DNA of 64,000 nucleotides from Micromonosporaceae bacterium (GCA_035713725.1 DASTMZ010000008.1:8280-72279); one strand, 5' to 3'; numbered from the stretch's first letter, positions 1,481 to 62,545 are shown. Notes: generated from the letters alone by a model not told the origin. Numbers and translations: made by a program.

Positions 1481-1541
1481 TCGTGGGTACGGGTTTTCGT
1501 GGGTACGGGTTGAGGTGGGTACGGGTTGAGGTGGGTACCGG
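1481..1541. repeat. About 16 bp tandem repeat x4 (GTGGGTACGGGTT core) in the efeU-efeO intercistronic gap
   Basis: tcgtgggtacgggtt / tcgtgggtacgggtt / gaggtgggtacgggtt / gaggtgggtaccgg read directly. The array starts immediately after the efeU stop (1542-1544). Confidence 0.9.
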
Positions 1542-2441
1542 CTATGTGCCTGGGGCCTGGTGAGCGGGCGTGGAATCGCGCTGCTGATCGGCGGCTGTCG
1601 CGTTGGCGGCGGGCGCGCTCGCAGGAGCTGGTGGCGTCGGACGGCGCCGGGGCAACGCGACGAGCAACACCATCGGCACGGCGTAGAGCACCCAGGCGAT
1701 CATCTCGATCACGGTCGGATGCGCGGACAGGCCGAGCACGCCGGTGAGCAGCGAGGCCTGTACGGTGCCCGGCGCGACGAGCCAGCTCAGGTCCAGCGGG
1801 CTCGCCTGACCGATGTTCAGCCAGCCGGCCTCGTGTGCGGTGTGCAGGACGGTCATGGTGAGTCCGGCCGCGACGATCACCAGCACGATCCCGGTGATCT
1901 TGAAGAACCGTGCGAGGTTGAGGCGTACGCCGCCGCGATAGATGCCGTATCCGATGACGACCGCGACGGCGATGCCCAGCAGCGCGCCGGTGGCCGCGGC
2001 CGCCGTGTTCGAGGTGCCGTCCAAAACGGACACCAGGAATACCGAGGTCTCGAAACCCTCTCGGAGCACCGCGAGGAACGCCATGGCCACCAGAGCAACG
2101 GCAGAGCCTTGTGCGAGCGCGTTGGCCGCGGCGCCCTCCAACTCCTTCTTCATGGTCCGTGCGTGGCGGTTCATCCAGACGATCATCGTGGTCACCATGG
2201 CGACGGCGAGTGCGCCGATGACCGTCTCGAGGCCCTCCTGCGCCTGCTGCGGCAGATCCTCGGAGAGCCGGACCAACGTGATGCCGACGGCAACGCACAC
2301 CGCGATCGCGGCGAGGACACCGATCCACGTCGCGCGTAGCGCGTCGCGCCGCCCGTTGCGCGCCAGGAAGGAGGCGATGATGCCGACGATCAGGCTGGCT
2401 TCGAGACCCTCGCGCAGGCCGATCACGAGCGTGGGTATCAC
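1542..2441 (-). CDS. efeU: High-affinity iron permease EfeU (FTR1/OFeT family)
   Basis: Two REGxE motifs (GLREGLEASL, VLREGFETSV) and multiple TM helices. Start set to GTG at 2441-2439, which is preceded by AAGGAG. The ORF-track ATG at 2534 would add a non-membrane leader. Confidence 0.85.
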   Translation of the reverse strand: MIPTLVIGLREGLEASLIVGIIASFLARNGRRDALRATWIGVLAAIAVCVAVGITLVRLSEDLPQQAQEGLETVIGALAVAMVTTMIVWMNRHARTMKKELEGAAANALAQGSAVALVAMAFLAVLREGFETSVFLVSVLDGTSNTAAAATGALLGIAVAVVIGYGIYRGGVRLNLARFFKITGIVLVIVAAGLTMTVLHTAHEAGWLNIGQASPLDLSWLVAPGTVQASLLTGVLGLSAHPTVIEMIAWVLYAVPMVLLVALPRRRPTPPAPASAPAANATAADQQRDSTPAHQAPGT

Positions 2442-2508
2442 GCGGGCTCCTTTCTCGTCGGTGCGTTTGGCCGTCGGTGCATTTGTTCGTCGAAGACGCG
2501 CTCGAAAG

Positions 2509-2527
2509 TCCGGTAAGGCTAACCTAA
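2509..2527. promoter_or_regulatory. IdeR/DtxR-type iron box 1 upstream of efeU
   Basis: TCCGGTAAGGCTAACCTAA matches the 19 bp iron-box consensus TTAGGTTAGGCTAACCTAA at 16/19 positions. It lies 68 bp upstream of the efeU start. Confidence 0.65.
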
Positions 2528-2537
2528 GACTCACGGC

Positions 2538-2556
2538 TTAGGCAAGGCGACCCTAA
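2538..2556. promoter_or_regulatory. IdeR/DtxR-type iron box 2 upstream of efeU
   Basis: TTAGGCAAGGCGACCCTAA matches the iron-box consensus at 15/19 positions. It lies 29 bp from box 1. Confidence 0.5.
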
Positions 2557-2607
2557 CTCACTGGATGTCGTACGTCTTCGTAACCCACAAACCGCGCGAC
2601 GACGCAC

Positions 2608-3303
2608 TCAGGGCAGACCGCGGCGGAGCAGCGTGTTTTCGCCGAGCGACCAGGCCGTGGTCGTCACCAGGTAGACGCTGGCCGCAAGCGGCAGCACCGC
2701 GACGGACACGAGCAGGAAGTACGGCGCGACTCGACTGACCGTGCCGAGCGCCCCTTCGGGTGTCGTGCCGTTGGTTCGCATCAGCATTGCCGTACGGCGT
2801 GCGTTCGCCCAGGCCAGCACGATCAGAGCGACAACGATCGCACCGAACACGGCCAGCCCACCGGCCGCGCCGACCGAGGCGAAGGCACCGATCGAGGCGA
2901 AGAGGTGAGCGGTGAGCGGCACGCCAAACGCGTGTGCCCGCGCGAGGTCGCCGTGGCTGGACGCGAAGACGCGGTAGAGCACGAATACAACCGGCGCCGG
3001 TACGAGCATCGGCAGCGCTCCGGCGTACGGGGAGATGCGTTCCGACCGGTAGAGCAGCTGGGTTTCCTCGACCAGCCGGCCCAGATTCGAGCCGTGGCGC
3101 TTGCGAAGTTCGGCGAGCCGGGGTGCCAGCCTCGCGCGAGCGCGCTCGCCACGGACCGCTGCCCGGGTGAGCGGATGCAGTGCAATGCGTACGACGACGG
3201 TGAGCAGCACGATCGCGGCGACCGTGCCGCCGACCGGATGGAGCGTGGTAGCGAGAGTGGTAAGCGCGGTGGACATCAGCGCCACCGGATTGACGGAAAG
3301 CAT
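2608..3303 (-). CDS. YidC/Oxa1-family membrane protein insertase (short actinobacterial type)
   Basis: TM1 is followed by an amphipathic PLTRAAVRGERARARLAPRLAELRKRHGSNLGRLVEETQLLYRSERISPYAGALPMLVPAPVVFVLY segment resembling the YidC C1 loop/TM2 signature. Start is taken at the internal ATG (MLSVNP); the ORF-track start is 3396. Confidence 0.65.
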   Translation of the reverse strand: MLSVNPVALMSTALTTLATTLHPVGGTVAAIVLLTVVVRIALHPLTRAAVRGERARARLAPRLAELRKRHGSNLGRLVEETQLLYRSERISPYAGALPMLVPAPVVFVLYRVFASSHGDLARAHAFGVPLTAHLFASIGAFASVGAAGGLAVFGAIVVALIVLAWANARRTAMLMRTNGTTPEGALGTVSRVAPYFLLVSVAVLPLAASVYLVTTTAWSLGENTLLRRGLP

Positions 3304-3607
3304 GGCGAGCCCCTCTGGCCTGGATGGATGCCAGGTCGGGTCGCGTCGGGTCGGACGGCTCAAGGGCGCTATGCGTACCGCGATCATGCGTACCACGATG
3401 TGGGCGCGCGGCCACGACCTGGGATGACAGGTGAGTGGCCAGGAGCAGCGGTCGGAGAGCCGGGGATCAGGCGTTACATCCGTGCTGAGCCATGGTGCCC
3501 GGAACGGATGACCCGTCGTCCCCGGAAGGGATTCGAGCCGATGTCGCTGAGGCGGCCATCACCAAGGCAGCGCCGGCAGACCAGGCCTCTCGCGGAACCG
3601 CGTGAGA

Positions 3608-3904
3608 TCAGTCGGCCGAGGGGAAGCGCCCGGGTGCCCGTGGCCGGGCGTGTCCCGGCGCGTCCGGGTCGCTGTGGCGGAGCGTGCCGCGCCCGACGGG
3701 GCCACGGCGTGGGTCGGTGACCCGGATCCGGACCGGCACGCGTGCGTCGCCTGCGTGGCGTCGCACCGCGACGGCGATGGCCAGCACGAGCGCCGCGACC
3801 GCGGCGCTGGCAATTGCACCGGACGGCCCAGCGAGCGCGGCCGCTGCCCAGACCACGGCCAACCCGACGAGCGCCGCCTTGAGATAGGCGTTGGTGGCCG
3901 ACAT
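3608..3904 (-). CDS. Small membrane protein, hypothetical
   Basis: 98 aa with two hydrophobic helices (ALVGLAVVWAAAALAG, AAVAALVLAIAVAV). It lies directly upstream of and co-oriented with the YidC-like gene. No family is recognised with certainty. Confidence 0.4.
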   Translation of the reverse strand: MSATNAYLKAALVGLAVVWAAAALAGPSGAIASAAVAALVLAIAVAVRRHAGDARVPVRIRVTDPRRGPVGRGTLRHSDPDAPGHARPRAPGRFPSAD

Positions 3905-4071
3905 GCCACCAGCCTAGTCCTTGTCGACCACCACCGCCCACGACGACCGAACAACGGGCCCGACCAGGACGCATACGCCGTGGCCTCGACATGATGTCGC
4001 GAACCACGGCAAGGAGTGTCCGAATCGGTGCGGGGTGTCACCGATCGACGGATACCGCGTAGGCTCACGCG

Positions 4072-4653
4072 ATGCACCGTGAATCGTTCTCGGCTCCGGG
4101 CCACCCAACGAACCAGTCGGCGCACATGGCCGATCGGCCGATCTATCAGGCGAGCGGATATCGGTCTAGCGATCGCTCCAGGGACGAATCGACGCAGCCC
4201 ATGGACTCTCAGTCGGGCGGGGAACGCCGCCGCGACATGCCCGGCGACGGTGTGGTCGACGTCCCGATCGAGGCGACCGAGACGATGCCCCACGTGCCGA
4301 CTCAGTCCGAGACCGCGGGCGGCGCGGCCGGCGGCGCGGTCTCCCTGCCGTACGGCATGGCGCTCCTGGTGGTCAGCCATGGCCCGAACATCGGTGCACG
4401 CTTCCTGCTCGACCGGGATCTGATCGTCGCCGGCCGCCACCCGGATTCGGACATCTTCCTGGACGACGTCACGGTGTCGCGGTCGCACGCGGAGTTCCGG
4501 CGCCTCGATGATCGGTTCGTGCTGGCCGATACGGGCAGCCTCAACGGCACGTACGTGAATCGGGAGCGAGTGCCGCAGGCCGAGCTGCGAAACGGCGACG
4601 AGATCCAGATCGGGAAGTTCCGGCTCACGTTCATCGAGTCCCAGCCGGGCTGA
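4072..4653 (+). CDS. garA: FHA-domain protein, GarA/OdhI family (2-oxoglutarate dehydrogenase regulator)
   Basis: The C-terminal 100 aa (ALLVVSHGPNIGARFLLDRDLIVAGRHPDSDIFLDDVTVSRSHAEF...GSLNGTYVNRE...GDEIQIGKFRLTF) is near-identical in pattern to mycobacterial GarA. The N-terminal tail carries a Thr-rich EATETM segment. An alternative start is at 4126. Confidence 0.85.
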   Translation: MHRESFSAPGHPTNQSAHMADRPIYQASGYRSSDRSRDESTQPMDSQSGGERRRDMPGDGVVDVPIEATETMPHVPTQSETAGGAAGGAVSLPYGMALLVVSHGPNIGARFLLDRDLIVAGRHPDSDIFLDDVTVSRSHAEFRRLDDRFVLADTGSLNGTYVNRERVPQAELRNGDEIQIGKFRLTFIESQPG

Positions 4654-5037
4654 CCGTTCGGCGAGCCACCCGCCACCCGAGCCATCGGGACTTGTCTTTG
4701 CCGAGCTCGCCAAGGCTGAGCCGGCACTCAGTAAGCCGGCCGACCAGGCGCGCGGTTGCCCAGGTCGCCCGGTCGCCGTGGCCAGCCACTTGGTCCGAGA
4801 ATCTTGCCTGCTCAGCCGGACGAACGGCGAATACGGTCCAATTCACCGCGCGTCGCCACGTCCCACAACGTAACGGTTAGGTGAACCAGCCACATATGCA
4901 CTTACGGTGGTGTAAAGGCGTGGGATAACGTCCCACGTCATCAAGACCAGTGTCACTGATCCGGCACTCGACGGCGCGTGCGGACCTGCCGCTCGCGGCC
5001 TCGGGATCTGGTTCATCTAACAGGAGGGGTCGGAGCC

Positions 5038-6228
5038 TTGAGGCAGGGACTCGTACGGTTGGTCGGCGGTGCCGCCATGCTGGCGCTCATCGGCGGCGCG
5101 GCCGCGTGCAACAGCACCAACAACAATTCCGCGGGTGGCGGTAGCACCAGCAACAGCAAGTGTGGCTATGAGATCGCGTTCTTTGGCGCGTTGACCGGCT
5201 CCGCGGCGAACCTGGGCGTCAACATCGAGCAGGGTGCAGAGCTTGCCGTTGATCAGTACAACGACAAGAACGGCGCGAACTGCATCACGATGAAGAAGTT
5301 CGACTCACAGGGCGACCCGGCGGTCGCGCCTGGCGTGGCGCGGCAGCTCATCCAGGACAAGAAGATCATCGGCATCGTCGGCCCGGCGTTCTCCGGTGAG
5401 TCGATCGCGGCGAACCCGATCTTCGACCAGGCGGGCATCCCGCTGATCACGCCGTCCGCGACGAACCCGGTGCTGGCCAGCGGTGGCAAGGCCGGCGGCA
5501 CGCCGTGGAAGGTGTTCCACCGCGCGGTCGCCAACGACGACGCGCAAGGCCCGGCGGCCGGCCTTTACATCAAGGAGATCCTTAAGCCGACGAAGGTGTT
5601 CGTCATCGACGACCAGTCCGCCTACGGTGCGGGCCTCGCCGACGCTGTCAAGCAGACGCTCGGCTCGCTCGTGGTCAACACCGACAAGGTCGCCGCGGAC
5701 GGCAAGCAGACCGACTTCTCGTCCAGCGTGACGAAGGTCGTGTCCAGTGGCGCGACAGTGCTGTTCTATGGCGGCTACTACCAGAACGCCGGTCTGCTGC
5801 GTAAGCAGCTCACCGCGGCGGGCTGGAAGGGCACGCTGGTGGCCGGCGACGGCGTCAACGACCCGGGCTACATCAAGGCGGCCGGCAACGCAGCGGCCCA
5901 GGGCACGGTCCTGACCTGCCCGTGTGCTCCGGCGTCGCAGGCGAGCGGCACGTTCGACCAGGACTACAAGGCGAAGTGGAACGTCGACGCCGGCACGTAC
6001 TCCGACGTGGCGTACGACGCGACGAACATCTTCTTGCAGGGCATCACGGCCGGTAACACCACCACCGCCAAGATGAACACCTACCTGTCGACTGTCGACT
6101 ACAAGGGCGTGGCGAACGAGTACAAGTTCCAGACCGACGGCGACCTGGACACCAGCCTGATCAAGGTCTGGGCGTTCAAGGTCGACAACGGCCAGGTCGT
6201 TCCTGACCAGGCCGCTCCGACGAGCTGA
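5038..6228 (+). CDS. Branched-chain amino acid ABC transporter substrate-binding lipoprotein (LivJ/K-like)
   Basis: Lipobox IGGAAAC and Leu/Ile/Val-binding family sequence (AFFGALTGSAANLG, IVGPAFSGES). TTG start at 5038 is preceded by AGGAGG; the ORF-track ATG is 4978. Confidence 0.85.
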   Translation: MRQGLVRLVGGAAMLALIGGAAACNSTNNNSAGGGSTSNSKCGYEIAFFGALTGSAANLGVNIEQGAELAVDQYNDKNGANCITMKKFDSQGDPAVAPGVARQLIQDKKIIGIVGPAFSGESIAANPIFDQAGIPLITPSATNPVLASGGKAGGTPWKVFHRAVANDDAQGPAAGLYIKEILKPTKVFVIDDQSAYGAGLADAVKQTLGSLVVNTDKVAADGKQTDFSSSVTKVVSSGATVLFYGGYYQNAGLLRKQLTAAGWKGTLVAGDGVNDPGYIKAAGNAAAQGTVLTCPCAPASQASGTFDQDYKAKWNVDAGTYSDVAYDATNIFLQGITAGNTTTAKMNTYLSTVDYKGVANEYKFQTDGDLDTSLIKVWAFKVDNGQVVPDQAAPTS

Positions 6229-6275
6229 CCGGACGATCTCTTTCGGGGACGCGCACTCGTCAGTAACTTCCTAGA

Positions 6276-6312
6276 CCGGTGCGGCCGGGGGCTTAGCCTC
6301 CGGCCGCACCGG
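6276..6312 (+). terminator. GC-rich hairpin between the binding-protein gene and livH (attenuator or partial terminator)
   Basis: A 13 bp perfect stem, CCGGTGCGGCCGG ... CCGGCCGCACCGG, with an 11 nt loop. No T-tract follows. Confidence 0.4.
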
Positions 6313-6335
6313 CGCAGTCGGCCATCGGAGCCCAT

Positions 6336-7301
6336 GTGGACTTTCACGCTCTCTTCAGCGACTTCGGCACCGAGACCACGACCGGGCTCGCGACGGGCGC
6401 GGTCTTCGCGTTGTTCGCGCTCGGTTACACGCTCGTCTACGGCGTGTTGCGGCTCATCAACTTCGCGCACTCCGAAGTCTTCATGCTCGGCACGTTCGCG
6501 GCGATCAGCATCTGGGGCGTGCTCGGATACACCGAGAACAGCGCCGCGCCAGGTGTCGGCATGCTCATCGTGCTGCTGGTGGCCGCGTTGGTCGCGGCGA
6601 TGCTCGCGTCCGGCACCACCGCGGTCCTGCTGGAATTGGTCGCCTACCGGCCGCTGCGACGTCGCAACGCACCGCCGCTCGCGTTCCTGATCACCGCGAT
6701 CGGCATGTCGACGATCCTGCAGGAGGCGGTCGGCGTCGGCGTTGGGCGCTACAGCACACACCGGAACCCGGTCGGCGCGCCGGTGCTCATCAAGCCCGCC
6801 GTGGTGCTTTCGTTCGGCAATACGAAGATCTACTCGTACCAGGTGCTGCTGGTCGTGACGGCGCTCGTGATGATGTACGCGCTGGACCGCTTCATCAACA
6901 CCACGCGGCTCGGCCGCGGCGTCCGCGCGGTCGCCCAGAACCCGGACGCGGCGGCGCTGATGGGCGTGAACAAGAACCGGGTGATCTCGCTTGTCTTCCT
7001 GCTCGGTGGCCTGATGGCCGGCATCGCCGCGGTGATGTACGTCATCAAGATCGGCAACACCAGCTACAACGCCGGCTTCCAACTCGGCATCGAAGCGTTC
7101 ACCGCCGCCGTGCTCGGCGGCATCGGCAATCTCCGCGGCGCTCTGCTCGGCGGATTCCTGCTGGGTGTGGTGGAAAACTACGGTGCCGCGCTGTTCGGCA
7201 CGCAGTACCACGACGTTGTCGCGTTCGTCATCCTCGTGCTGATCCTGATGTTCCGGCCGACCGGCCTGCTCGGCGAGTCGTTGGGGAGGACGCGGGCATG
7301 A
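6336..7301 (+). CDS. livH: Branched-chain amino acid ABC transporter permease LivH
   Basis: 321 aa polytopic protein with the LivH-type N-terminus (GLATGAVFALFALGYTLVYGVLRLINFAHSEVFMLG). Confidence 0.9.
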   Translation: MDFHALFSDFGTETTTGLATGAVFALFALGYTLVYGVLRLINFAHSEVFMLGTFAAISIWGVLGYTENSAAPGVGMLIVLLVAALVAAMLASGTTAVLLELVAYRPLRRRNAPPLAFLITAIGMSTILQEAVGVGVGRYSTHRNPVGAPVLIKPAVVLSFGNTKIYSYQVLLVVTALVMMYALDRFINTTRLGRGVRAVAQNPDAAALMGVNKNRVISLVFLLGGLMAGIAAVMYVIKIGNTSYNAGFQLGIEAFTAAVLGGIGNLRGALLGGFLLGVVENYGAALFGTQYHDVVAFVILVLILMFRPTGLLGESLGRTRA

Positions 7302-8407
7302 GGGAGTTCTTCCAGACCATCGGGCGGTCGTTCAGCCATGCTCGCGACTGGTACCACGCCCAGCCGTGGTGGGGTCGGCTGATCATCCTCGGACTAGTTT
7401 TCGTCGGCGCGGTGTTCCTGCCGTATCTCGGCAGCGTGCCCGGCATCGGCCCACAGATCATCACGCAGGGCACGGACTGGTATACCGCGCTGTTCCATAT
7501 GTCCTATTACGTGCTACTCGCGCTCGGACTCAACGTCGTGGTCGGCTACGCCGGGTTGCTCGACCTCGGGTACGTCGGCTTCTTCGCCGTCGGTACGTAC
7601 GCGATCGCGCTGCTCACCTCGCCGGACAGCGATCTCAACACGAACTGGCGGTGGCTTGCCGCGCTGCCGGTCGCGATCATGGCATCGGTGGTCAGCGGCG
7701 TGCTGTTCGGTTGGCCAACGCTCCGACTGCGCGGTGACTACCTAGCCATCGTGACGCTCGGCTTCGCGGAGATCATCCGTACCTTCGCGGATAGCACCAC
7801 GCTGCTGCGCGGCGACCGGGGTTTTTCGTCCGTACCGCACCCGCCGGGTACGAAGGGCAACGGGAAGCCGCTGTTCGGCGACATCGACGCTCGCCCGTAC
7901 TACTGGCTGGGGCTTGCCGTCATCGTGCTCGTCATCTTGGCGATCCGTAACCTCGACCGCAGCCGGGTCGGCCGCTCGTGGCTCGCGATCCGCGAGGACG
8001 AAGAGGCCGCCGAGATCATGGGCGTACGGACGGTGAAGTTCAAGCTGTGGGCGTTCGCGATCGGCGCGTTCGTCGGCGGCCTCGCCGGAGCGCTGTTCGC
8101 TGGCGAGAACGGCTTCGTCAACTCGTCGACATTCGTGCTGCAGTTCTCGATCCTGATCCTGGCGGCGGTCGTGATGGGTGGCGCCGGCAACATCCCCGGC
8201 GCAATCCTCGGCGGCATCCTGATCTCCTACATCCCGGACCGCCTGACCGGCATCAGTGTGTTCGGGATCGACGCCGCGCAGTACAAGTTCTTGCTGTTCG
8301 GCATACTGATTGTGGTGATCATGATCTTCCGGCCGCAGGGCCTCATCCCGAGTCGCCGGCGCGCGGCCGAACTCCGCGACCGCGAGAAGGAGGCGGCGCC
8401 ACAATGA
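7298..8407 (+). CDS. livM: Branched-chain amino acid ABC transporter permease LivM
   Basis: 369 aa polytopic protein with a LivM-type core (LGLNVVVGYAGLLDLGYVGFFAVGTY). ATGA overlap with livH. Confidence 0.9.
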   Translation: MREFFQTIGRSFSHARDWYHAQPWWGRLIILGLVFVGAVFLPYLGSVPGIGPQIITQGTDWYTALFHMSYYVLLALGLNVVVGYAGLLDLGYVGFFAVGTYAIALLTSPDSDLNTNWRWLAALPVAIMASVVSGVLFGWPTLRLRGDYLAIVTLGFAEIIRTFADSTTLLRGDRGFSSVPHPPGTKGNGKPLFGDIDARPYYWLGLAVIVLVILAIRNLDRSRVGRSWLAIREDEEAAEIMGVRTVKFKLWAFAIGAFVGGLAGALFAGENGFVNSSTFVLQFSILILAAVVMGGAGNIPGAILGGILISYIPDRLTGISVFGIDAAQYKFLLFGILIVVIMIFRPQGLIPSRRRAAELRDREKEAAPQ

Positions 8408-9294
8408 CCGATCCGAACGAGTGGACGGACGCGGTCGCCGGCACGCCGGAGGACCGACCGGTGCCGACCGGCGAGCCGACCGCGGCCGACGTCGCCGGGT
8501 ACGTCCCGCACGCACCGGATCCCGACGCGTTGCTCGAGGTGGACGACGTGACGTTGCGCTTTGGCGGCGTCGTGGCGCTCGATGCCGTGTCGTTCAGCCT
8601 GCGTCGTGGCGAGATCTTCGGCCTCATCGGACCCAACGGCGCCGGCAAGACCACCTGCTTCAACGCAATGACCGGCGTCTACCGACCGACGATTGGCGAG
8701 ATTCGGTTCAACGGACAGGTCATCACCGGCAAGAAGAAGCACCAGATCACGCACATGGGCATCGCGCGTACGTTCCAGAACATCCGGCTCTTCCCGGAGA
8801 TGACCGCGATCGAGAATGTGATGGTCGGCGCGGACGCGCACCACAAGACCAGCGTGCTCGGCGCGCTGTTCCGCGTGCCCCGCTTCTGGCGCGAAGAGCG
8901 CGACGGTCATCGGAAGGCGTTGGAGCTGCTCGACTTCGTGGGCATCGGCGGCCGAGGCAACGTGGTGGCGCGCAACCTCGCCTATGGCGAACAGCGCCGG
9001 CTCGAGATCGCGCGCGCCCTCGCGACGAATCCCACGCTGCTTTGTCTCGACGAGCCCGCGGCCGGCTTCAACCCGATCGAGAAGGACAGCCTGCTGGACC
9101 TGATCCGTCGCATCCGGGACATCGGGGTAACGATCCTGCTGATCGAGCACGACATGCGACTCGTCATGAACGTCTGCGAACGGATCGTGGTGCTGGAGTT
9201 CGGCAAGAAGATCGCCGAGGGTGTGCCGGCCGAGGTACGCGAGAACCCGCGCGTGATCAACGCCTACCTGGGGGTGCCGGCCGATGCCGCCTGA
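8404..9294 (+). CDS. livG: Branched-chain amino acid ABC transporter ATP-binding protein LivG
   Basis: Walker A GPNGAGKTT, signature YGEQRRLEIARAL, Walker B LLCLDEPAAG. Start ATG at 8404 overlaps the livM stop (ATGA). Confidence 0.9.
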   Translation: MTDPNEWTDAVAGTPEDRPVPTGEPTAADVAGYVPHAPDPDALLEVDDVTLRFGGVVALDAVSFSLRRGEIFGLIGPNGAGKTTCFNAMTGVYRPTIGEIRFNGQVITGKKKHQITHMGIARTFQNIRLFPEMTAIENVMVGADAHHKTSVLGALFRVPRFWREERDGHRKALELLDFVGIGGRGNVVARNLAYGEQRRLEIARALATNPTLLCLDEPAAGFNPIEKDSLLDLIRRIRDIGVTILLIEHDMRLVMNVCERIVVLEFGKKIAEGVPAEVRENPRVINAYLGVPADAA

Positions 9295-10036
9295 GTCGAC
9301 AACACCACCGTGGAACACCGGGGAGAAGCTGCTCGAGATCGACGACATCACGCTGCTCTACGGTCGCATCCAGGCGCTGCACGGCATCAGCCTGGAGGTC
9401 AACGCGGGGGAGATCGTGGCGCTGGTCGGCGCGAACGGCGCCGGCAAGACGACCACCATGCGCGCGGTGTCCGGGTTGCGGCCGATCGCCGCCGGGGCGG
9501 TCCGGTTCGAGGGCCGGGACATCACGAAGATGCGCGCCGACCTGCGTGTCGCGCTCGGGATCTGCCAGGCGCCCGAGGGCCGTGGCATCTTCCCGGGCAT
9601 GACCGTGCTGGAGAACCTCGAGATGGGTGCCTACATCCGCCGGGACGCCGCGGGAATCCGCGCCGATCTCGATCGGGTGTATTCGCTGTTCCCCCGGCTC
9701 GCCGAGCGCCAAAAGCAGGCCAGCGGCACGCTGTCCGGCGGCGAGCAGCAGATGCTCGCGGTCGGGCGGGCCTTGATGAGTCGACCGAAGCTGCTGCTCT
9801 TGGACGAACCGTCGATGGGGCTCGCGCCGATCTTGATCCAGCAGATCTTCTCGATCATCACCGAAATCAACCAGCAAGGCACCACGATCCTGGTCGTCGA
9901 ACAGAACGCACAGCAGGCGCTGTCTCGGGCACATCGCGCATACGTGCTGGAAACCGGCCGTATCGTCAAGAGCGGAACCGGTGCCGAATTGCTCCGGGAT
10001 CCGGCGGTGAAGGACGCCTACCTCGGCGTCGCCTGA
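9284..10036 (+). CDS. livF: Branched-chain amino acid ABC transporter ATP-binding protein LivF
   Basis: Walker A GANGAGKTT, signature LSGGEQQMLAVGRAL, Walker B LLLLDEPSMGL. Confidence 0.9.
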   Translation: MPPESTTPPWNTGEKLLEIDDITLLYGRIQALHGISLEVNAGEIVALVGANGAGKTTTMRAVSGLRPIAAGAVRFEGRDITKMRADLRVALGICQAPEGRGIFPGMTVLENLEMGAYIRRDAAGIRADLDRVYSLFPRLAERQKQASGTLSGGEQQMLAVGRALMSRPKLLLLDEPSMGLAPILIQQIFSIITEINQQGTTILVVEQNAQQALSRAHRAYVLETGRIVKSGTGAELLRDPAVKDAYLGVA

Positions 10037-10140
10037 CGTCCAGCCCGGCACCGGCGGGCGCGCTGACCGTCACGGTCGCACTGGGCGTCGACGACACCGA
10101 TCAGGCGTCGCGCAGGCCACGTCAACTCACGACTGAAGGA

Positions 10141-11052
10141 ATGATCCAGATGAAGCTCACTCGGAGTCGGGCGCTGATCAGCGTCGTCGGCACCATCGCC
10201 ATCGCGGCGTCGTTGGCGGCATGTGGCAGTTCGAACAATTCAAATGCGGGTGGCGCGAGCACGCCGACGATCGCGTCGTCGGTTGACCCGTCGCTCGCCG
10301 CGAAGGTGCCCGCGGCGATCAAGTCGAAGGGCACGATCCTCATCGGCACCGACTCGACCTACGCGCCGAGCGAGTTCCTCGCTCCCGATGGCAAGACCGT
10401 CGTCGGCTTCGACGTCGACCTGTTCAACGCGGTCGCGGGCAAACTCGGCCTGAAGACCCAGTGGCAATCGGCCAACTTCTCGGACATCATTCCCGGCGTG
10501 ACGTCCGGCAAGTACGACATCGGCGTCTCGTCGTTCACCATCAACGCCGAGCGCATGCAGCAGGTCACCATGGTGTCGTACTTCTCCGCCGGCACGCAGT
10601 GGGCGCAGCAGGCCGGTGGCTCGGTCGACCCGAACAACGCATGCGGCAAGAAGATTGCCGTGCAGACCGGCACGGTGCAGGTGGATGACATCACCGCACG
10701 CTCGAAGACCTGCACGACAGCCGGTAAGCCCGCGATCCACATCGACCAGTACCAGGCGCAGAGCGACGCGACCAATGCCGTCGTCACCGGAAAGGACGAC
10801 GCCATGCTCGCCGACTCTCCGGTGTCCGCGTACGCGGTCCAGAAGACCAACGGCCAGCTCGCGCTCCTCGGCACCATTTACGAATCGGCGCCGTACGGCT
10901 ACGTGTTGCCCAAGAACGAGACCGACTTCGGCAGCGCGATCGCAAGCGCCGTGCAGGCGCTCATCGCGGACGGTACGTACAACAAGATCCTCACGAAGTG
11001 GGGCGTGCAGGCCGGCGCGATCACCAATCCGACGGTAAACCCAACCCAGTGA
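10141..11052 (+). CDS. Polar amino acid ABC transporter substrate-binding lipoprotein (family 3)
   Basis: Lipobox SLAAC and family-3 SBP pattern (GTILIGTDSTYAPSEF...GFDVDLFNAVAGKLGL...SSFTINAERMQQV). An alternative ATG is at 10150. Confidence 0.85.
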   Translation: MIQMKLTRSRALISVVGTIAIAASLAACGSSNNSNAGGASTPTIASSVDPSLAAKVPAAIKSKGTILIGTDSTYAPSEFLAPDGKTVVGFDVDLFNAVAGKLGLKTQWQSANFSDIIPGVTSGKYDIGVSSFTINAERMQQVTMVSYFSAGTQWAQQAGGSVDPNNACGKKIAVQTGTVQVDDITARSKTCTTAGKPAIHIDQYQAQSDATNAVVTGKDDAMLADSPVSAYAVQKTNGQLALLGTIYESAPYGYVLPKNETDFGSAIASAVQALIADGTYNKILTKWGVQAGAITNPTVNPTQ

Positions 11053-11056
11053 TCTC

Positions 11057-45332: not shown

Positions 45333-45341
45333 GGCGCCAAC

Positions 45342-52893: not shown

Positions 52894-52921
52894 GCATCGG
52901 AGCGCAACATCGGCGTCGCGC

Positions 52922-52952
52922 AACCTTGGCGTCTCGAAACCTTGGCGTCTCG
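52922..52952. repeat. 16 bp tandem duplication
   Basis: aaccttggcgtctcg a aaccttggcgtctcg. Confidence 0.88.
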
Positions 52953-53006
52953 ACACGCGGTGCCGACCGCGTCTCTACGCGGCCCGTCAACGCGTCGACA
53001 GGGCGT

Positions 53007-53093
53007 AGCGACCCGATACCGTGCAGCGACCCGATACCGTGCAGCGTCCCGATGCGGCGCATCGTCCCGATACCCCATCCCCGATACCCCATC
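53007..53093. repeat. Composite array of 5 units with a CCCGATRC core (period 18, 18, 18, 14)
   Basis: agcgacccgataccgtgc x2, agcgtcccgatgcggcgc, atcgtcccgataccccat, ccccgataccccatc. Confidence 0.88.
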
Positions 53094-55085: not shown

Positions 55086-55116
55086 GGTGGTCGCGAGCCC
55101 CGGGCTCGCGACCACC
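55086..55116 (+). terminator. Perfect 15 bp-arm palindrome after the binding-protein gene (attenuator/terminator hairpin)
   Basis: GGTGGTCGCGAGCCC c GGGCTCGCGACCACC, 16 bp after the stop. No T-tract follows. Confidence 0.5.
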
Positions 55117-55178
55117 ATCGGTTAGCTGGCAGATCGGTTAGCTGGCAGATCGGTCGCTGGCAGATCGGTCGCTGATAG
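55117..55178. repeat. 15-16 bp tandem repeat x4 between the binding-protein and permease genes
   Basis: atcggttagctggcag x2, atcggtcgctggcag, atcggtcgctgatag. It immediately follows the hairpin. Confidence 0.92.
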
Positions 55179-55217
55179 CACGGCTCGTGAACGAGGTGGG
55201 GGTCGGAGAGGAGGCCG

Positions 55218-56174: not shown

Positions 56175-57061
56175 CGACCTTCGAACTTGTGACGCTCGAC
56201 GAGACCGCGGCCCGTCCGCAGGCCCTCGGTGGTCGGCGGGTGCTGCGCCGTCTGAGGCGCAACCCACTCGCGCTGGCCGGCCTTATCGTCGTCGTGGTCG
56301 CGGTCATCCTGGCGATCTTCGCGAATCAGATCGCACCGTTCGCGCCGGATCACACGAACTTCTCGGCTGCGCTGACACCGCCGTCTGCGAGGCACTGGTT
56401 CGGCACCGACGAGCTCGGTCGCGACCAGCTGTCCCGGGTGTTGTTCGGCCTGCGCGTCTCGCTGTCGGTCGCGGCGCTGTCGGTGGCGCTGTCGCTGGTC
56501 GTCGGCGTGCCACTCGGGCTGGCCGCGGGGTTCTACGGATTCCTCGACCCGCTCGTGTCGCGGGTCGCGGACACGCTGCTCGCATTCCCGTTCCTCATCC
56601 TCGCGGTCGGGCTCGCCGCGATTCTTGGCCCGTCGCTCGGTACGGCAACCATCGCGATCGGCGTCGGCAACGTACCCGCGATCATCCGCATCACGCGCAG
56701 CGAAGCATTGCGTCTGAGAGGCCTGGACTTCGTGGCGGCCGCGGTCGCGGACGGCGCGAGCGACTTTGTCGTGCTGCGACGCCACATCCTGCCCAACGCG
56801 GTGAACACACTGATCGTGCAGGCAACCGTGGCGGCACCGGCGGCGATCATCGGCGAGGCCGTACTGTCGTTCCTCGGTCTCGGCATCCGGCCGCCGAATC
56901 CGTCGCTCGGTGTGATGCTCGCCAGCGCGCAACCGTTGTTCCGTGACGGCCCTTGGCTCGCCGTGCTGCCCGGCATCTGCATCGTTATCGTCACGCTCGG
57001 CCTGAATCTGTTGGGCGATGGGCTGCGCGACGCCCTCGATCCGCGGGAGTCGCCGCGATGA
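56171..57061 (+). CDS. Peptide ABC transporter permease (DppC/OppC type)
   Basis: HWFGTDELGRDQLSRV motif and an EAA-like loop (DFVAAAVADGASDFVVLRRHILPNAV). Overlaps the upstream stop. Confidence 0.9.
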   Translation: MTTFELVTLDETAARPQALGGRRVLRRLRRNPLALAGLIVVVVAVILAIFANQIAPFAPDHTNFSAALTPPSARHWFGTDELGRDQLSRVLFGLRVSLSVAALSVALSLVVGVPLGLAAGFYGFLDPLVSRVADTLLAFPFLILAVGLAAILGPSLGTATIAIGVGNVPAIIRITRSEALRLRGLDFVAAAVADGASDFVVLRRHILPNAVNTLIVQATVAAPAAIIGEAVLSFLGLGIRPPNPSLGVMLASAQPLFRDGPWLAVLPGICIVIVTLGLNLLGDGLRDALDPRESPR

Positions 57062-58212
57062 CCGCCGGCAACGGAGTGCCCGAGCAATCGGCTCGAGACT
57101 GGACCATCGAGAGCGTGCCGTCCGTGGAGAGCGTGCCGTCCGCGGAAAGCGTGCCGTCCGCGGAAAGCGTGCCGTCCGTCGGGCGCGTGCCGTCTGTGGA
57201 GAGCGTGCCGTCGAGCCTGTCCGGGCGCGAGACATTACTCTCGGTACGGGACCTGTCAGTGCGGTTCCGGACCGAAGACGGTCCGGTGCTCGCCGTCGAC
57301 GCGGTGTCCTTCGACGTCGGTCAACGAGAGGTGCTTGCGTTGGTCGGCGAGTCGGGCTGCGGCAAGAGCGTGACGGCGATGGCGCTCACACGTCTGCTGC
57401 CGAGCAACGCCAACATCTCCGGTGCGGTGAAGCTCGGCAGCCGATCGTTGCTCGATCTGTCCGAGCCGGACCTTCGGGACGTACGCGGTAAAGACATCGC
57501 GTACGTCTTCCAGGAGCCGATGACGTCACTGAACCCGGTGCTCACCGTCGGGCGTCAGATCGGCGAGGTGCTGCGTCGACACCAGCAGATGCGCGGAGCG
57601 GCGGTGATTCGTCGGGCTACCGAACTGCTGGACCTGGTCGGGATCCCGCTGCCGGACCGTCGCGTACGGGAATATCCACACCAGCTGTCCGGCGGCATGC
57701 GGCAGCGCGTGATGATCGCGATGGCGGTCGCGTGCCGACCGAAGCTGCTGGTCGCAGACGAGCCGACCACCGCCCTCGACGTGACCGTACAGGCGGGCAT
57801 CCTCGACGTCCTGCGTGATCTGCGCGCCGAGATCGGCACGGCGGTGCTGCTCATCACGCACGACCTGGGAGTCGTTGCCGACCTCGCGGATCGCGTCGTG
57901 GTCATGTACGCCGGCCGCACCATCGAGGAGGCCGGCACCGACGTGTTGTTCGCCCGCCACAGCCATCCGTACACCCGCGGGCTGCTGGAGGCCGTGCCGA
58001 ACCCACAGCGACGCGCAGACGGTGGCCTGCGGGAGATCCCTGGTCGCGTGCCGACCATGCGCAACTCGCCGGCCGCGTGCACATTCGCGGCACGGTGCGA
58101 GTTCGCCGACGAGCAATGCAGTCGCGAACGGCCGGCGTTGCTGCCCGGACCGGCCGGCCATCCGGTGCGCTGCTTCCATCCGTTGCCGGCGACCGCGGAA
58201 GCCCTGACATGA
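57058..58212 (+). CDS. Peptide ABC transporter ATP-binding protein (DppD/OppD type) with a repeat-bearing N-terminal leader
   Basis: Walker A GESGCGKSV, signature LSGGMRQRVMIAMAV, Walker B LLVADEPTTALD and an oligopeptide C-terminal domain (HPYTRGLL). ATGA overlap with the permease. The repeat frame has GC at every third position, which supports translation. Confidence 0.88.
   Translation: MTAGNGVPEQSARDWTIESVPSVESVPSAESVPSAESVPSVGRVPSVESVPSSLSGRETLLSVRDLSVRFRTEDGPVLAVDAVSFDVGQREVLALVGESGCGKSVTAMALTRLLPSNANISGAVKLGSRSLLDLSEPDLRDVRGKDIAYVFQEPMTSLNPVLTVGRQIGEVLRRHQQMRGAAVIRRATELLDLVGIPLPDRRVREYPHQLSGGMRQRVMIAMAVACRPKLLVADEPTTALDVTVQAGILDVLRDLRAEIGTAVLLITHDLGVVADLADRVVVMYAGRTIEEAGTDVLFARHSHPYTRGLLEAVPNPQRRADGGLREIPGRVPTMRNSPAACTFAARCEFADEQCSRERPALLPGPAGHPVRCFHPLPATAEALT
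57106..57213 (+). repeat. 18 bp tandem repeat x6 in the dppD-like 5' region (ESVPSV ESVPSA ESVPSA ESVPSV GRVPSV ESVPSS)
   Basis: atcgagagcgtgccgtcc gtggagagcgtgccgtcc gcggaaagcgtgccgtcc x2 gtcgggcgcgtgccgtct gtggagagcgtgccgtcg. Confidence 0.92.
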
Positions 58213-58298
58213 GCGGCCGTGACATGAGTGGCACTGACATGAGTGGCCGTGACATGAGTGGCACTGACATGAGTGGCACTGACATGAACGGCCGTGAA
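58209..58298 (+). repeat. 15 bp tandem repeat x6, each unit beginning with an in-frame ATG (MSGRD MSGTD MSGRD MSGTD MSGTD MNGRE)
   Basis: atgagcggccgtgac atgagtggcactgac atgagtggccgtgac atgagtggcactgac atgagtggcactgac atgaacggccgtgaa. Unit 1 carries the ATGA stop/start overlap. Confidence 0.95.
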
Positions 58299-59294: not shown

Positions 59295-59370
59295 GATCGA
59301 TGGTGTGTGCTGGATCGTGGTGTGTGCTGGATCGTGGTGTTGGCTGGATCGCGGGGTTGAGCTGGATCGG
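59295..59370. repeat. 17-18 bp tandem repeat, about 4.5 copies (GGATCGTGGTGTGTGCT core), downstream of the dppF-like gene
   Basis: GGATCG recurs at 59312, 59329, 59346 and 59364, with a degenerate first copy at 59295. Confidence 0.88.
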
Positions 59371-59427: not shown

Positions 59428-59500
59428 ATGGGCCGTGGGTGTATGGGCCGTGGGTATGTGAGCCGTGGGTATGTGAGCCGTGGGTATATGAGCCGTGGGA
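59428..59500. repeat. 13-15 bp tandem repeat x5 (ATGKGMGCCGTGGGT) just upstream of ggt
   Basis: atgggccgtgggtgt atgggccgtgggt atgtgagccgtgggt atgtgagccgtgggt atatgagccgtggga. It ends 5 bp before the GAGGAG RBS of ggt. Confidence 0.92.
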
Positions 59501-61370: not shown

Positions 61371-61426
61371 CGCTGCGCCCCAAGCCTGCTGAGCGCTGAG
61401 CCTTCGGATCGGAACCCGGGAGTGTC

Positions 61427-62545
61427 CTACGCCTTCCGAGTCACGAGGTGCCGTGCGCCGTTGGACCGCGCGCCGGAACTGACCGAGCTGCGCAGGCGGT
61501 GGTCATCGACCGCGTCCCGATCAATCACGTCCGGATCAACCGTGTCCCGAGCGGCTGCGGATTGGTCGAAGGACGGACCGTCGGCACCAGCGTTCGAATG
61601 GTCGGCTGCATAGCTCAACGCGATCTGTCGGGCCGCCCACACATGCGTGTGCGCGGCGTGGCCGGCTGCTTCCGCGTCGCCGGCACTGATCGCGATCGCC
61701 AGCGCCTCGTGCTCTCGCCAGGAGTGCGGTGCGCGGCGTAGCGCAGTTTGCCGGTAGACCCACTCCAAGCGGTCGTGCAGCGAATCCATCATGCTGACCA
61801 GCAGCGCGTTGCCGGACATGCGGCAGACTTCGGCGTGGAACGCGGTGTTCAACCTCGCGAGCTCGGTCACCGACGCTGTTAGACCTGACGGCGTAAGACC
61901 TGACGGCGCAACACCTGACGACTCGGCAGCCGATTTCCCAGCGGCAGCCGACTTCCCAGCGACGTCCGAGTGCGCTCTGCCGGTCGAGTGCGCTCTGCCG
62001 GTCGAGTGCGGTCTGCCGGCCGAGTGCGCTCTCGGTGACGCAGTGGGCGCCGCGGCATCGGATACGCCGTTCTCAAGGGCTGCGAGACTGCCGGTCTCGG
62101 TCGCAGCGGTTTCGGCGACGATGCTCTGCAGCCGCGCGGCGCCGGCGGCGTCGATGCGCTGCGCGGCGAGTTGCGCGCTCAACACCTCAAGCGCGAGTCG
62201 CACCTCGAACAGGTTCTCGACGTCCTGCGTGGAAATGCTTGCCACCACGGCACCGCGTCGCGCGTGGGCGATCAGGAAACCCTCGCGCTCGAGTACGCGA
62301 ATCGCCTCGCGCACCGGGTTTCGGGACACGCCGAAGTCCAGCGCGAGCCGATCCTCGGTCAGACGGTGCCCTGGCGGGTATTCGCACTCGATGATCCGCC
62401 GACGCAGCTCCGCCACGACCTTGTCGCGCAGCGGCAAATGGTCCGCGCCGATCGTCGCGTTTTGGGGCATCGTTGCATTTTGGGGCGTTGCATTTTGGGG
62501 CGTTGCATCTTGGGGCACTGTCGCCTGGGGCACCACAGTCACCAC
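61427..62545 (-). CDS. GntR-family transcriptional regulator (FadR/FCD type) carrying repeat insertions
   Basis: Winged HTH (LTEDRLALDFGVSRNPVREAIRVLEREGFL) and FCD helices (ENLFEVRLALEVLSAQLAA ... FHAEVCRMSGNALLVSMMDSLHDRL) split by a repeat tract of about 70 aa. An alternative start is ATG at 62470. Confidence 0.85.
   Translation of the reverse strand: MVTVVPQATVPQDATPQNATPQNATMPQNATIGADHLPLRDKVVAELRRRIIECEYPPGHRLTEDRLALDFGVSRNPVREAIRVLEREGFLIAHARRGAVVASISTQDVENLFEVRLALEVLSAQLAAQRIDAAGAARLQSIVAETAATETGSLAALENGVSDAAAPTASPRAHSAGRPHSTGRAHSTGRAHSDVAGKSAAAGKSAAESSGVAPSGLTPSGLTASVTELARLNTAFHAEVCRMSGNALLVSMMDSLHDRLEWVYRQTALRRAPHSWREHEALAIAISAGDAEAAGHAAHTHVWAARQIALSYAADHSNAGADGPSFDQSAAARDTVDPDVIDRDAVDDHRLRSSVSSGARSNGARHLVTRKA
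61878..62035 (-). repeat. Three adjacent tandem arrays (15 bp x3, 18 bp x2, 18 bp x4) inserted inside the FCD domain coding region
   Basis: gttagacctgacggc gtaagacctgacggc gcaacacctgacgac; tcggcagccgatttccca gcggcagccgacttccca; four cgagtgcgctctgccggt-type units. These encode SGLTP SGLTP, AGKSAA x2 and HSTGRA x3-4. Confidence 0.9.
62454..62531 (-). repeat. 15 bp tandem repeat x5 at the gntR 5' end (PQNAT units)
   Basis: gttgcattttggggc x2, gttgcatcttggggc, actgtcgcctggggc, preceded by gtcgcgttttggggc. Confidence 0.9.

Follow-up and report, generated by a model that had tools for sequence, protein, structure and literature searches.

A 64-kb stretch of DNA from a Micromonosporaceae bacterium contains dozens of short tandem arrays, most of which are built from units of 12-18 bp and each of which has its own unit sequence. 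(The stretch is DASTMZ010000008.1:8280-72279 of assembly GCA_035713725.1, and we refer to the whole 64,000 nucleotides as the window.) We propose that these arrays are locally generated minisatellites, or VNTR loci (VNTR stands for variable number of tandem repeats), and that they probably stem from a mutational process that is far more active in this lineage of Micromonosporaceae than in its relatives. The arrays far outnumber those in shuffled sequences or in comparable DNA, they change by whole units between nearly identical strains, and within genes they almost always preserve the reading frame. All of our evidence comes from this one region and its orthologues.

Exact protein look-ups assign the window to a 72,742-bp contig of a third-party metagenome-assembled genome (MAG) that is listed at NCBI as "Micromonosporaceae bacterium", with locus tags VFR11_... 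and proteins HEU0237760 to HEU0237799. Lon itself had no exact match; its closest record, which came up in a homologue search, is given there as 100% identical. Among named genera, Rugosimonospora is the nearest, with a Lon protein that is 84% identical. The DUF885 protein of the window is 95% identical to its counterpart in the MAG SMAG_U9363 and 74-77% identical to those of Rugosimonospora africana and of two Danish soil MAGs. The arrays were first noticed by inspection of the sequence alone, and the gene labels in that original prediction proved to be essentially right when checked against Pfam: efeO/efeU, crcB, lon, a luxR-family gene, a helicase, an araC-family gene, a CLC channel, ndh, GH15, cydAB, folP, RibD_C, DUF885, dppABCDF, ggt, and gntR.

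Abundance and unit length of the arrays

We ran Tandem Repeats Finder (TRF) on the window with match 2, mismatch 5, indel 7, and a score of at least 50. This gave 55 rows, which merged into 42 arrays between positions 152 and 62516, which bears out the original claim of at least 30 arrays. In contrast, 100 second-order Markov shuffles of the window yielded 1.65 ± 1.3 arrays per 64 kb, 100 triplet-block shuffles yielded 1.05 ± 1.1, and the maximum in either set was 5. At the default TRF setting (2/7/7/50), the window has 35 arrays, or 547 per Mb, which account for 3.2% of its bases.

The most common period is 15 bp, with 21 of the 42 arrays, followed by 12 and 18 bp (4 each), 14 and 16 bp (3 each), and 17 bp (2); periods of 13, 19, 21, 22, and 24 bp occur once each. 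The unit is 12-19 bp long in 38 of the 42 arrays. As a check that does not involve TRF, we scanned all periods between 4 and 60 bp for exact tandem duplications with two or more copies. Periods of 12, 13, 14, 15, 16, 17, and 18 bp had 2, 2, 2, 11, 4, 1, and 4 exact duplications, respectively. There were none at 10-11 bp and just one at 19-60 bp, with a period of 30 bp, which is two 15-bp units. Because this count is independent of TRF, and because the shuffled sequences had zero exact duplications above 11 bp, the restriction of units to 12-18 bp, with 15 bp as the mode, comes from the sequence itself and not from a detection threshold. Some arrays also have higher-order periods of 24, 30, or 45 bp, which implies steps of several units.

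The units of different arrays are not related to each other. Allowing for rotation and reverse complement, the mean best similarity between units was 0.475, as compared to 0.479 for random segments of the window with matching lengths. No 4-mers or 5-mers were enriched in the units after correction for multiple testing, and no Chi-like or G-run motif and no families of units among the arrays survived such correction either. Furthermore, the units of arrays within genes are duplicated local codons. Given that random segments resemble one another just as much, the arrays are, as had been claimed originally, duplications of the local sequence rather than copies of an element. A scan of the window at Rfam gathering thresholds and a tRNA scan found no RNA gene that would explain any array and no match to an Rfam family.

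Placement and reading frame

We compared the arrays to a gene model from self-trained codon usage, which has 56 genes that cover 90% of the window, and we used Pfam to check the genes that adjoin arrays. Non-coding DNA has 2.7 arrays per kb and coding DNA 0.43 per kb, a 6.3-fold difference, and 17 arrays are mostly non-coding, versus 4.0 ± 1.9 at permuted positions. Arrays are also enriched near the ends of genes: 29 of the 42 are no more than 100 bp from the end of a gene, versus 13.1 ± 3.0 expected, and none of 2,000 permutations reached this value (the maximum was 23). This bears out the suggestion that arrays concentrate at gene boundaries, including the junctions that had been named (efeU/efeO, dppA/dppB, the N-terminus of dppD, dppD/dppF, dppF/ggt, and the tail of cydA by cydB).

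Of the 23 arrays within genes, 22 have a period that is divisible by three, as compared to just 5 of 14 non-coding arrays (P = 1.4e-4, Fisher exact test). Changes in the number of units within genes should therefore keep the frame. The original prediction that units within genes are always 12, 15, or 18 bp long holds for 20 of the 23; the remainder are 21 bp, 24 bp, and a weak array of 22 bp. As predicted, units of 13, 14, 16, and 17 bp are confined to DNA outside the called genes, and so is the unit of 19 bp. The non-coding periods are spread smoothly over 13, 14, 15, 16, 17, 18, and 19 bp.

Relative to the limits of the Pfam domains, the arrays within genes encode N-terminal leaders (in crcB, luxR, araC, folP, dppD, dppF, and ggt), C-terminal tails (in cydA, cydB, the helicase, gntR, and a hypothetical membrane protein), or linkers between domains (in the helicase, gntR, and dppC). 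The claim that conserved cores are free of arrays is mostly correct, with exceptions in the CLC channel gene, in dppC, and in the DUF885 gene. A two-copy duplication of 15 bp (36101-36131; 2.1 copies, 93% match) lies within the CLC domain, and a 21-bp repeat lies within DUF885. In dppC, a 15-bp unit (56460-56488; 1.9 copies, 92%) lies between the OppC_N and BPD_transp_1 domains. Statistically, the distribution of the arrays bears the marks of purifying selection on both frame and position, and the contrast in frame between coding and non-coding arrays is what supports a filter by selection.

Gain and loss of units between strains and relatives

To see whether copy numbers vary, a check that was named in the original prediction, we used a strain set of 11 contigs, from four metagenome samples of the Joint Genome Institute (JGI) and one Logan assembly, that are 99.85-100% identical to the window outside of the arrays and span 71,213 bp. 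We read indels and single-nucleotide polymorphisms (SNPs) from gapped BLAST alignments. There were 45 SNPs outside of arrays, and every indel was a change of whole units within an array. Five of the 23 distinct arrays that were covered are polymorphic between strains. First, the array in the spacer between dppF and ggt (59295-59369; 17-bp unit, 4.3 copies, 86%) has one additional unit (+17 bp) in contigs L095 and L096. Second, the array at the start of ggt (59428-59499; 15-bp unit, 4.8 copies, 92%), which has an ATG or GTG in each unit, has one fewer unit (-15 bp) in L096. Third, the array behind the C-terminal (xSPSP)n tail in the hypothetical membrane protein (38595-38698; 15-bp unit, 6.9 copies, 93%) has four additional units (+60 bp) in L101 and L103. 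The other two each have one additional unit (+15 bp) in L103 and L104. These are the array in the C-terminal tail of the helicase (28847-28933; 15-bp unit, of which the first 2.7 copies are exact) and the array in the N-terminal leader of the araC-family gene (30202-30296; 15-bp unit, 6.1 copies, 79%), whose protein has 191 amino acids in these strains instead of 186.

In total, we saw 9 changes in 40 array comparisons, or 0.225 per array, versus 6.3e-4 SNPs per site. The ratio is about 356-fold, but this is a rough relative rate, as there were few events, some of them were seen in more than one contig and the contigs in question may not be independent, and the SNPs have been filtered by selection. 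With 42 arrays per 64 kb, there would be about one unit change for every four to five SNPs. SNPs between strains were also concentrated within two of the arrays (30202-30296 and 59428-59499), with 6 of 15 SNPs in L103 and 3 of 4 in L096. This could reflect turnover or conversion of units, or else ambiguity in the alignments.

Two sequences from the close clade also differ from the window at arrays. Contig L001, from a different MAG, SMAG_U9363, is about 92-94% identical to the window at the nucleotide level over 5.9 kb, and the JGI contig L006 is 93% identical over 2.4 kb. All of the indels of at least 11 bp between the window and L001 fall in arrays, either as differences in copy number or as different arrays at the same site. 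An array that extends across the stop codon of cydB and into the spacer (48181-48238; 15-bp unit, 3.9 copies, 83%) has 4 copies in the window and 2 in L001. The divergent spacer between the RibD_C and DUF885 genes has three arrays, and all of them differ: the first (50677-50716; 15-bp unit, 2.7 copies, 84%) is 78 bp longer in L001; the second (50817-50858; 13-bp unit, 3.2 copies, 93%) has 2.5 copies in L001; and in place of the third, which is upstream of DUF885 (50965-51077; 18-bp unit, 6.4 copies, 82%), L001 has a different array of 15-bp units. Similarly, where the window has a 14-bp unit over the stop codon of the DUF885 gene (52834-52894; 4.4 copies, 87%), L001 has a 20-bp array, and within DUF885 itself, a 15-bp unit that is present just once in the window forms an array of 45 bp in L001. 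The 21-bp repeat within DUF885 (51643-51683; 2.1 copies, 86%), which is outside the class of 12-19 bp, has the same unit in L001, so it appears to be older and conserved.

The only indels between the window and L006 are of 15, 15, 18, and 81 bp, and they are in the arrays of gntR or beside the gene. The array in the C-terminal tail (61505-61550; 15-bp unit, 3.1 copies, 74%) has one fewer unit in L006, and L006 is 81 bp shorter across two adjacent arrays that encode part of the linker between domains (61924-61961, 18-bp unit, 2.1 copies, 95%; and 61967-62032, 18-bp unit, 3.7 copies, 93%). The 18-bp difference is at an array in the 5' leader or N-terminal extension (62471-62516; 15-bp unit, 3.1 copies, 96%), which encodes PQNAT repeats.

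Lineage specificity

For comparisons across genomes, we used a strict class of arrays with a period of 12-19 bp, at least 2.5 copies, and at least an 80% match. As background, we used two sets of sequences. A metagenome scan with CydB identified 1 close relative and 79 distant contigs (L013-L091), and the latter are our soil baseline (536 kb, nearly all with a GC content of at least 0.64). The other set is 158 kb from Micromonosporaceae outside of the close clade, including Micromonospora pisi and R. africana. The window has 3.75 strict arrays per 10 kb, versus 0.38 for the other Micromonosporaceae and 0.17 for soil, which is an excess of 10-fold and 22-fold, respectively. M. pisi has 0.9 arrays per 10 kb. 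With default TRF, soil has 50 arrays per Mb versus 547 for the window, or about 11-fold. This fits the prediction that the density would exceed that of related high-GC DNA. Furthermore, the two close relatives, L001 and L006 (8.3 kb in total, at about 93% nucleotide identity), have 7.2 strict arrays per 10 kb. The excess is common to the immediate clade and is absent or nearly so at 84-88% protein identity (contigs L012 and L093).

Several of the related loci have features of their own. In L093, from the Micromonosporaceae MAG GCA_035262965.1 (88% identity for Lon), lon is flanked by a repeat of 113 bp (1.8 copies, 1625-1830) and a repeat of 47 bp (2.4 copies, 4334-4441), and these unit sizes are quite unlike those of the window. 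In L007, a JGI contig of about 82% nucleotide identity, an IS110-family transposase (2106-3371) is beside the gntR homologue. This is the only mobile element that we saw at any related locus, and we saw none in the window. L009 (1-10725), a contig from the European Nucleotide Archive with a syntenic dpp-ggt-gntR region, has genes that are split into many short open reading frames, which suggests a long-read assembly that is rich in frameshifts, so its repeat counts need caution.

Origin of the arrays

The original prediction had also proposed an active local process of duplication or slippage that is filtered by selection, and this is supported by the density of the arrays, by their turnover, and by the test of reading frame. 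We suggest that arrays would begin when a local stretch of 12-18 bp, most often 15 bp, is tandemly duplicated, with no need for any motif. Whole units are then gained and lost, singly or several at once, as we saw among strains that are about 99.9% identical. These changes would occur by slipped-strand mispairing during replication or by unequal sister exchange, which is the standard mechanism for such loci and fits the steps of several units as well as the higher-order periods. Finally, as the statistics of frame and placement indicate, purifying selection removes the arrays that break the frame or disrupt a folded domain. The survivors are found in spacers, operon junctions, 5' leaders, protein termini, and linkers, and within genes nearly all of them have units of 12, 15, or 18 bp. 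Longer tails and linkers in proteins, and altered spacing of start codons and promoters, are side effects on this reading. As to why the rate is raised in this clade, the most economical guess is that a function in replication or repair has been altered. In-frame units and the placement of arrays are the expected residue of purifying selection on neutral mutational input, and we read the arrays as by-products and not as devices.

Several points weigh against this account. We did not recover a clean pre-duplication allele for any array in the window, so the initial duplication is a step that we infer. When we looked to the lengths of the partial last copies in exact runs for signs of microhomology at the borders, most of the runs lay within multi-copy arrays. 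Ordinary slippage alone does not predict a sharp range of 12-18 bp, so the mechanism would have a further part. Five arrays on the 12-kb strain contig L092, which are older and more degenerate, are invariant. The metagenome samples may overlap with the data behind the MAG. And given that we studied a single region, a genome-wide extent is an extrapolation.

The lack of a motif argues against a site-specific enzyme, while the narrow range of lengths argues for a physical ruler. It is therefore conceivable, although we hold this more specific proposal only tentatively, that the replication or repair machinery of one clade of Micromonosporaceae has recently undergone a heritable change that imposes a ruler of about 15 bp (about 1.5 helical turns). 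Such a change might cause sequence-independent duplications of 12-18 bp and unit indels at about a quarter of the rate of SNPs, and might lead to the remodelling of protein termini, linkers, and gene junctions across the genome. If so, then because relatives at 84-88% protein identity lack the excess, comparative genomics could identify the responsible gene change, and this would reveal what sets the length of duplications in bacteria.

Alternatively, the arrays might be selected devices for contingency or tuning, with copy numbers that are kept variable to adjust initiation, coupling, promoter spacing, or tail length, and thereby provide pre-adapted variants. Many arrays do lie exactly at start codons, at stop-start junctions, or in divergent promoters (such as 58201-58297, 59428-59499, and 50677-51077), some are polymorphic between strains, and every copy in the dppD/dppF array keeps the stop codon, the start codon, and the frame of dppF. 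However, uniform mutational input followed by purifying selection would leave the same placement, with a 6-fold depletion from coding regions and in-frame units in genes. The affected genes are ordinary housekeeping genes (cydAB, dpp, folP, crcB, and the neighbourhood of lon) and not genes for the surface or for interactions with a host. Units that preserve the frame cannot switch a gene on or off as the classic tracts of 1-8 bp do. The relative rate is modest, at a few hundred times that of a site for point mutation. Finally, neither a particular sequence nor a particular spacing is conserved, given that the corresponding arrays of L001 differ in length or have unrelated units. We consider it unlikely that the arrays are maintained for tuning.

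A different origin for the first duplication seems comparably doubtful. In this scenario, a double-strand cut with a stagger of about 15 bp, from another nuclease or from the abortive or reversed insertion of an element whose target-site duplications are long, would be filled in and the ends joined, and slippage would only expand the resulting footprint. The narrow and motif-independent range of 12-18 bp, with its mode at 15, does resemble the ruler of an enzyme that spans about 1.5 helical turns. Several duplications that appear to be young also have little or no extra partial copy (39026 and 53066, with 2.0 copies each, and 3371 and 56460, with 1.9 copies each). Some elements make target duplications of 14-17 bp, and actinobacteria commonly carry Ku and LigD. 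On the other hand, none of the arrays has a transposase or a remnant of an element, we found neither a target motif nor additional footprint bases, and the only mobile element that we saw is the IS110 in a distant relative (L007). Excision that retains both copies of the target is not known to be a routine outcome in bacteria. Furthermore, most arrays have 3-7 copies, so slippage would still do most of the work.

It is very unlikely that there is nothing special about the window, with arrays that reflect chance composition or a general property of high-GC actinobacteria. With permissive TRF settings, high-GC relatives and soil contigs also have 1.4-3.5 arrays per 10 kb, often with periods of 15 or 18 bp. 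However, shuffles that keep the composition have 1-2 arrays instead of 42, and the excess persists with default TRF and in the strict class. Also, much of the background is marginal two-copy matches. In particular, 30 of the 82 TRF hits in soil have a period of 21 bp, and the eight of these that we inspected were marginal two-copy matches with differing sequences and scores of 50-66. This peak does not look like a real family. It seems to arise from coding periodicity in combination with the score threshold, and it inflates the permissive background.

That the arrays are artefacts of sequencing or of assembly is just as unlikely. The window is from a third-party MAG, and 6 of 22 ends of metagenome contigs come within 60 bp of an array, which exceeds the 10.9% expected (P = 0.027; examples are at 55107-55203, 56359-56526, and 50797). 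This weakly suggests that unresolved heterogeneity in copy number breaks the assemblers. But JGI and Logan assemblies of five samples reproduce the arrays base for base, as the original prediction required. For instance, strain contigs L092, L097, L098, and L099 are 99.93-100% identical to the window, with no gaps, and this reproduction rules out an assembly artefact. Also, both relatives at about 93% identity have arrays at the same sites, and the copies are imperfect and in frame, which is not expected of artefacts.

Least credible of all is a dispersed family of mobile repeats that inserts at gene junctions, even though many arrays are at junctions within operons and one covers a stop-start pair, as some mycobacterial repeats do (PMC3184786, PMC12548453), because the units are unrelated to each other, are 12-18 bp long and not 40-100 bp, are local duplications where they are coding, and do not match Rfam.

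Comparison to known repeat systems

The arrays fit the definition of VNTR loci or minisatellites: head-to-tail units are present above chance, strains differ by whole units, and the units are local and specific to each locus. The closest parallels are the loci used for multiple-locus VNTR analysis (MLVA), for example in Mycobacterium tuberculosis, Burkholderia, and Xanthomonas. Those also have head-to-tail units of at least 10 bp, change by whole units between strains, and are either intergenic or in frame, and slippage or unequal exchange is the presumed origin for both. The window differs from MLVA loci in the density of its arrays, which is about 11 times that of comparable DNA, in its sharp range of 12-18 bp, and in that unit changes account for every indel in 71 kb. 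For comparison, in pseudogenes of Burkholderia, changes in repeat units account for just 2 of 396 deletions (PMC6054270).

Mycobacterial interspersed repetitive units (MIRUs) are also from Actinomycetota, are often at junctions within operons, and vary in copy number. MIRUs are related units of 40-100 bp at about 40-50 loci; they have short direct repeats on either side and are presumed to be mobile (PMC3184786). They are intergenic within operons, and they contain an open reading frame that overlaps the stop codon of one neighbouring gene and the start codon of the other (PMC3184786, PMC12548453). The array at the dppD/dppF junction is similar in that a stop codon, a start codon, and an open frame are coupled to the downstream gene (PMC12548453). 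The MIRU-style overlap is true of this array (58201-58297) and partly of the array at the start of ggt (59428-59499), but most of the arrays are within plain spacers, leaders, tails, or linkers. Also, in contrast to MIRUs, the units in the window are 12-18 bp long, are unrelated between loci, and are copied locally, so the original view that the arrays are not MIRU-like in sequence stands. We considered and rejected two other kinds of repeats. Repetitive extragenic palindromes (REP) and miniature inverted-repeat transposable elements (MITEs) do not fit, as there is no shared sequence or k-mer among the units and no Rfam family. CRISPR arrays do not fit either, as the units are contiguous, with no spacers.

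Like the arrays, contingency loci have repeats in promoters and at the 5' ends of genes, along with changes in length that are driven by slippage. Classic contingency tracts have units of 1-8 bp, and shifts in the frame or in promoter spacing switch genes, mostly surface genes, on or off. Such loci switch very rapidly, at about 1e-5 to 1e-3 per generation, and are heterogeneous within a population. In contrast, nearly all of the coding arrays in the window (22 of 23) have in-frame units, the genes have housekeeping roles, and the rate, which is a relative one of about 356 times the SNP frequency per site, is modest. Eukaryotic minisatellites (units of 10-60 bp) are similar in the size of their units, in having a unit that is specific to each locus, in higher-order periodicity, and in polymorphism. 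However, the arrays in the window are on a bacterial chromosome that does not undergo meiotic recombination, they are short (2-7 copies), and we found no shared core motif.

We found no prior description in the literature of this phenomenon in Micromonosporaceae or of a regime of 15-bp duplications in bacteria. In a recent preprint, the tandem-repeat content of Actinomycetota is reported to be evolutionarily labile (10.64898/2026.06.01.729349). This fits with a lineage-specific burst, although the preprint does not describe the phenomenon in the window. Overall, this is ordinary VNTR biology, but with an unusual density, an unusually sharp range of unit lengths, and all of the variation in length that we saw between strains.

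Tandem-repeat loci are usually a minor and scattered source of variation in bacteria, but here they are the sole source of the length changes that we saw between strains. If the phenomenon is genome-wide, then a genome of the size that is typical for the family would have several thousand arrays. This would be a natural experiment on what fixes the length of spontaneous tandem duplications, on the extent and the sites of in-frame insertions that housekeeping proteins can bear, and on how translational coupling and the junctions of genes persist when local sequence is duplicated again and again. As a practical matter, the arrays break short-read assemblies and shift the annotated start codons, and they could serve as very high-resolution strain markers for an uncultured group of soil bacteria.

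Genes and junctions reshaped by arrays

At the junction of dppD and dppF (58201-58297; 15-bp unit, 5.8 copies, 88%), the unit is GCxxTGACATGAGTG, so that a TGA stop codon and an ATG start codon recur about six times, in frame with dppF. The gene callers of PGAP and JGI both place the start of dppF at the last ATG (MNGREAK...), which gives a "spacer" of 72 nt. This spacer is instead an in-frame run of possible starts. In cluster look-ups, alleles of DppF have 327 or 322 amino acids and differ only in the number of units. In the relatives L010 and L011, dppD and dppF overlap by 4 nt. L011, a related MAG with about 60% identity for GntR, has a perfect 27-bp array (2.4 copies, 11700-11780) at the dppD end of this junction. 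Therefore, arrays at junctions do recur in relatives, with another unit length and at a much lower overall density.

The regulator at the end of the window (61427-62545, minus strand), which has GntR and FCD domains, has 372 amino acids, or 347 from its best-scoring start. In contrast, most homologues at 70-88% identity have 216-226 amino acids, and the closest homologue has 304. The extra length is due to an insert of about 75 amino acids between the domains and to extensions at both termini, all of which derive from tandem units. Thus, the arrays have visibly rebuilt this protein, from about 216 to 372 amino acids. Besides the arrays described above, the linker between the helix-turn-helix and FCD domains includes a 15-bp array (61881-61920; 2.7 copies, 92%).

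The hypothetical membrane protein (37860-38708) has arrays at both ends. Its N-terminus is encoded by 12-bp units (37874-37959; 7.2 copies, 78%), and in cluster look-ups, its alleles have 267, 282, or 302 amino acids and differ only in the number of units in the (xSPSP)n tail. Similarly, alleles of CydA have 518, 514, or 506 amino acids and differ only in the number of units. The array in the C-terminal tail of cydA (46813-46882; 12-bp unit, 5.8 copies, 77%) is just ahead of the overlap between cydA and cydB, and L012 is 60 bp shorter here. The C-terminal tail of cydB, past the Pfam domain, also has a 12-bp unit (48043-48107; 4.8 copies, 80%).

The helicase gene (23987-29266, plus strand) encodes a superfamily 1 helicase-nuclease of 1,759 amino acids, with DUF4011, AAA_11, AAA_12, and MTES_1575 (restriction-endonuclease-like) domains. 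Besides the polymorphic array in its C-terminal tail, it has 15-bp arrays in its N-terminal region (25201-25262; 4.1 copies, 93%) and in the linker between the AAA_12 and MTES_1575 domains (28362-28445; 4.8 copies, 94%), so that it carries three arrays, one of which differs between strains. We found no evidence to tie this protein to the repeat phenomenon. The spacer between the helicase gene and the convergent glyoxalase gene has another array (29269-29314; 15/16-bp unit, 2.9 copies, 87%).

Other arrays along the window

Near the beginning of the window, there is a 16-bp array between the stop codon of efeU (FTR1) and the start codon of efeO (imelysin) (1482-1538; 3.6 copies, 92%) and another in the 5' leader region of efeU (2455-2492; 2.4 copies, 81%). 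The 5' end of a YidC-like (60KD_IMP) open reading frame has a 15-bp unit (3371-3399; 1.9 copies, 92%). A 15-bp array encodes the N-terminal leader of crcB, ahead of the CRCB domain (13189-13263; 4.5 copies, 79%), and it is unchanged in strain contig L092. Further along, a 14-bp array is between the stop codon of a SIP-type reductase and a DUF2630 gene (15065-15129; 4.8 copies, 81%), and a 19-bp array is directly downstream of the stop codon of lon (18074-18110; 1.9 copies, 88%). The luxR-family gene has two 15-bp arrays, one N-terminal to the GerE helix-turn-helix (20107-20160; 3.6 copies, 82%) and one at the N-terminus (20625-20659; 2.3 copies, 100%). A 17-bp unit is directly upstream of the start codon of ndh (39026-39059; 2.0 copies, 88%).

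The N-terminus of dihydropteroate synthase (folP), ahead of the Pterin_bind domain, includes a 12-bp array (48993-49025; 2.8 copies, 85%). The spacer between the DUF885 gene and dppA has a 16-bp array (52902-52953; 3.0 copies, 87%) and then a compound array (53007-53093) in which an 18-bp unit (3.8 copies, 86%) is followed by an exact 14-bp unit (2.0 copies, from 53066). In the spacer between dppA and dppB, there is a 16/15-bp array (55117-55174; 3.3 copies, 94%), and three metagenome contigs end in it or beside it. The N-terminal leader of dppD, ahead of the ABC_tran domain, has an 18-bp unit (57109-57212; 5.8 copies, 87%).

Three of the 42 arrays are weak. A 15-17-bp array at 152-202 (3.1 copies, 72%) is a doubtful member of the set; a 24-bp array within the gene for a branched-chain amino-acid permease (7541-7598; 2.5 copies, 74%) is probably outside of the phenomenon; and a 22-bp array near the start of an ABC ATPase gene (8446-8490; 2.0 copies, 78%) is probably due to chance.

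The density of arrays is uneven along the window, with a peak at 48-63 kb. Two stretches have no array or only two weak ones: 40400-46800, which includes zwf, GH15, a GMC oxidoreductase, and the core of cydA, and 3400-13100, which includes two operons for amino-acid ABC transporters. Both of these stretches consist of tightly packed, overlapping genes.

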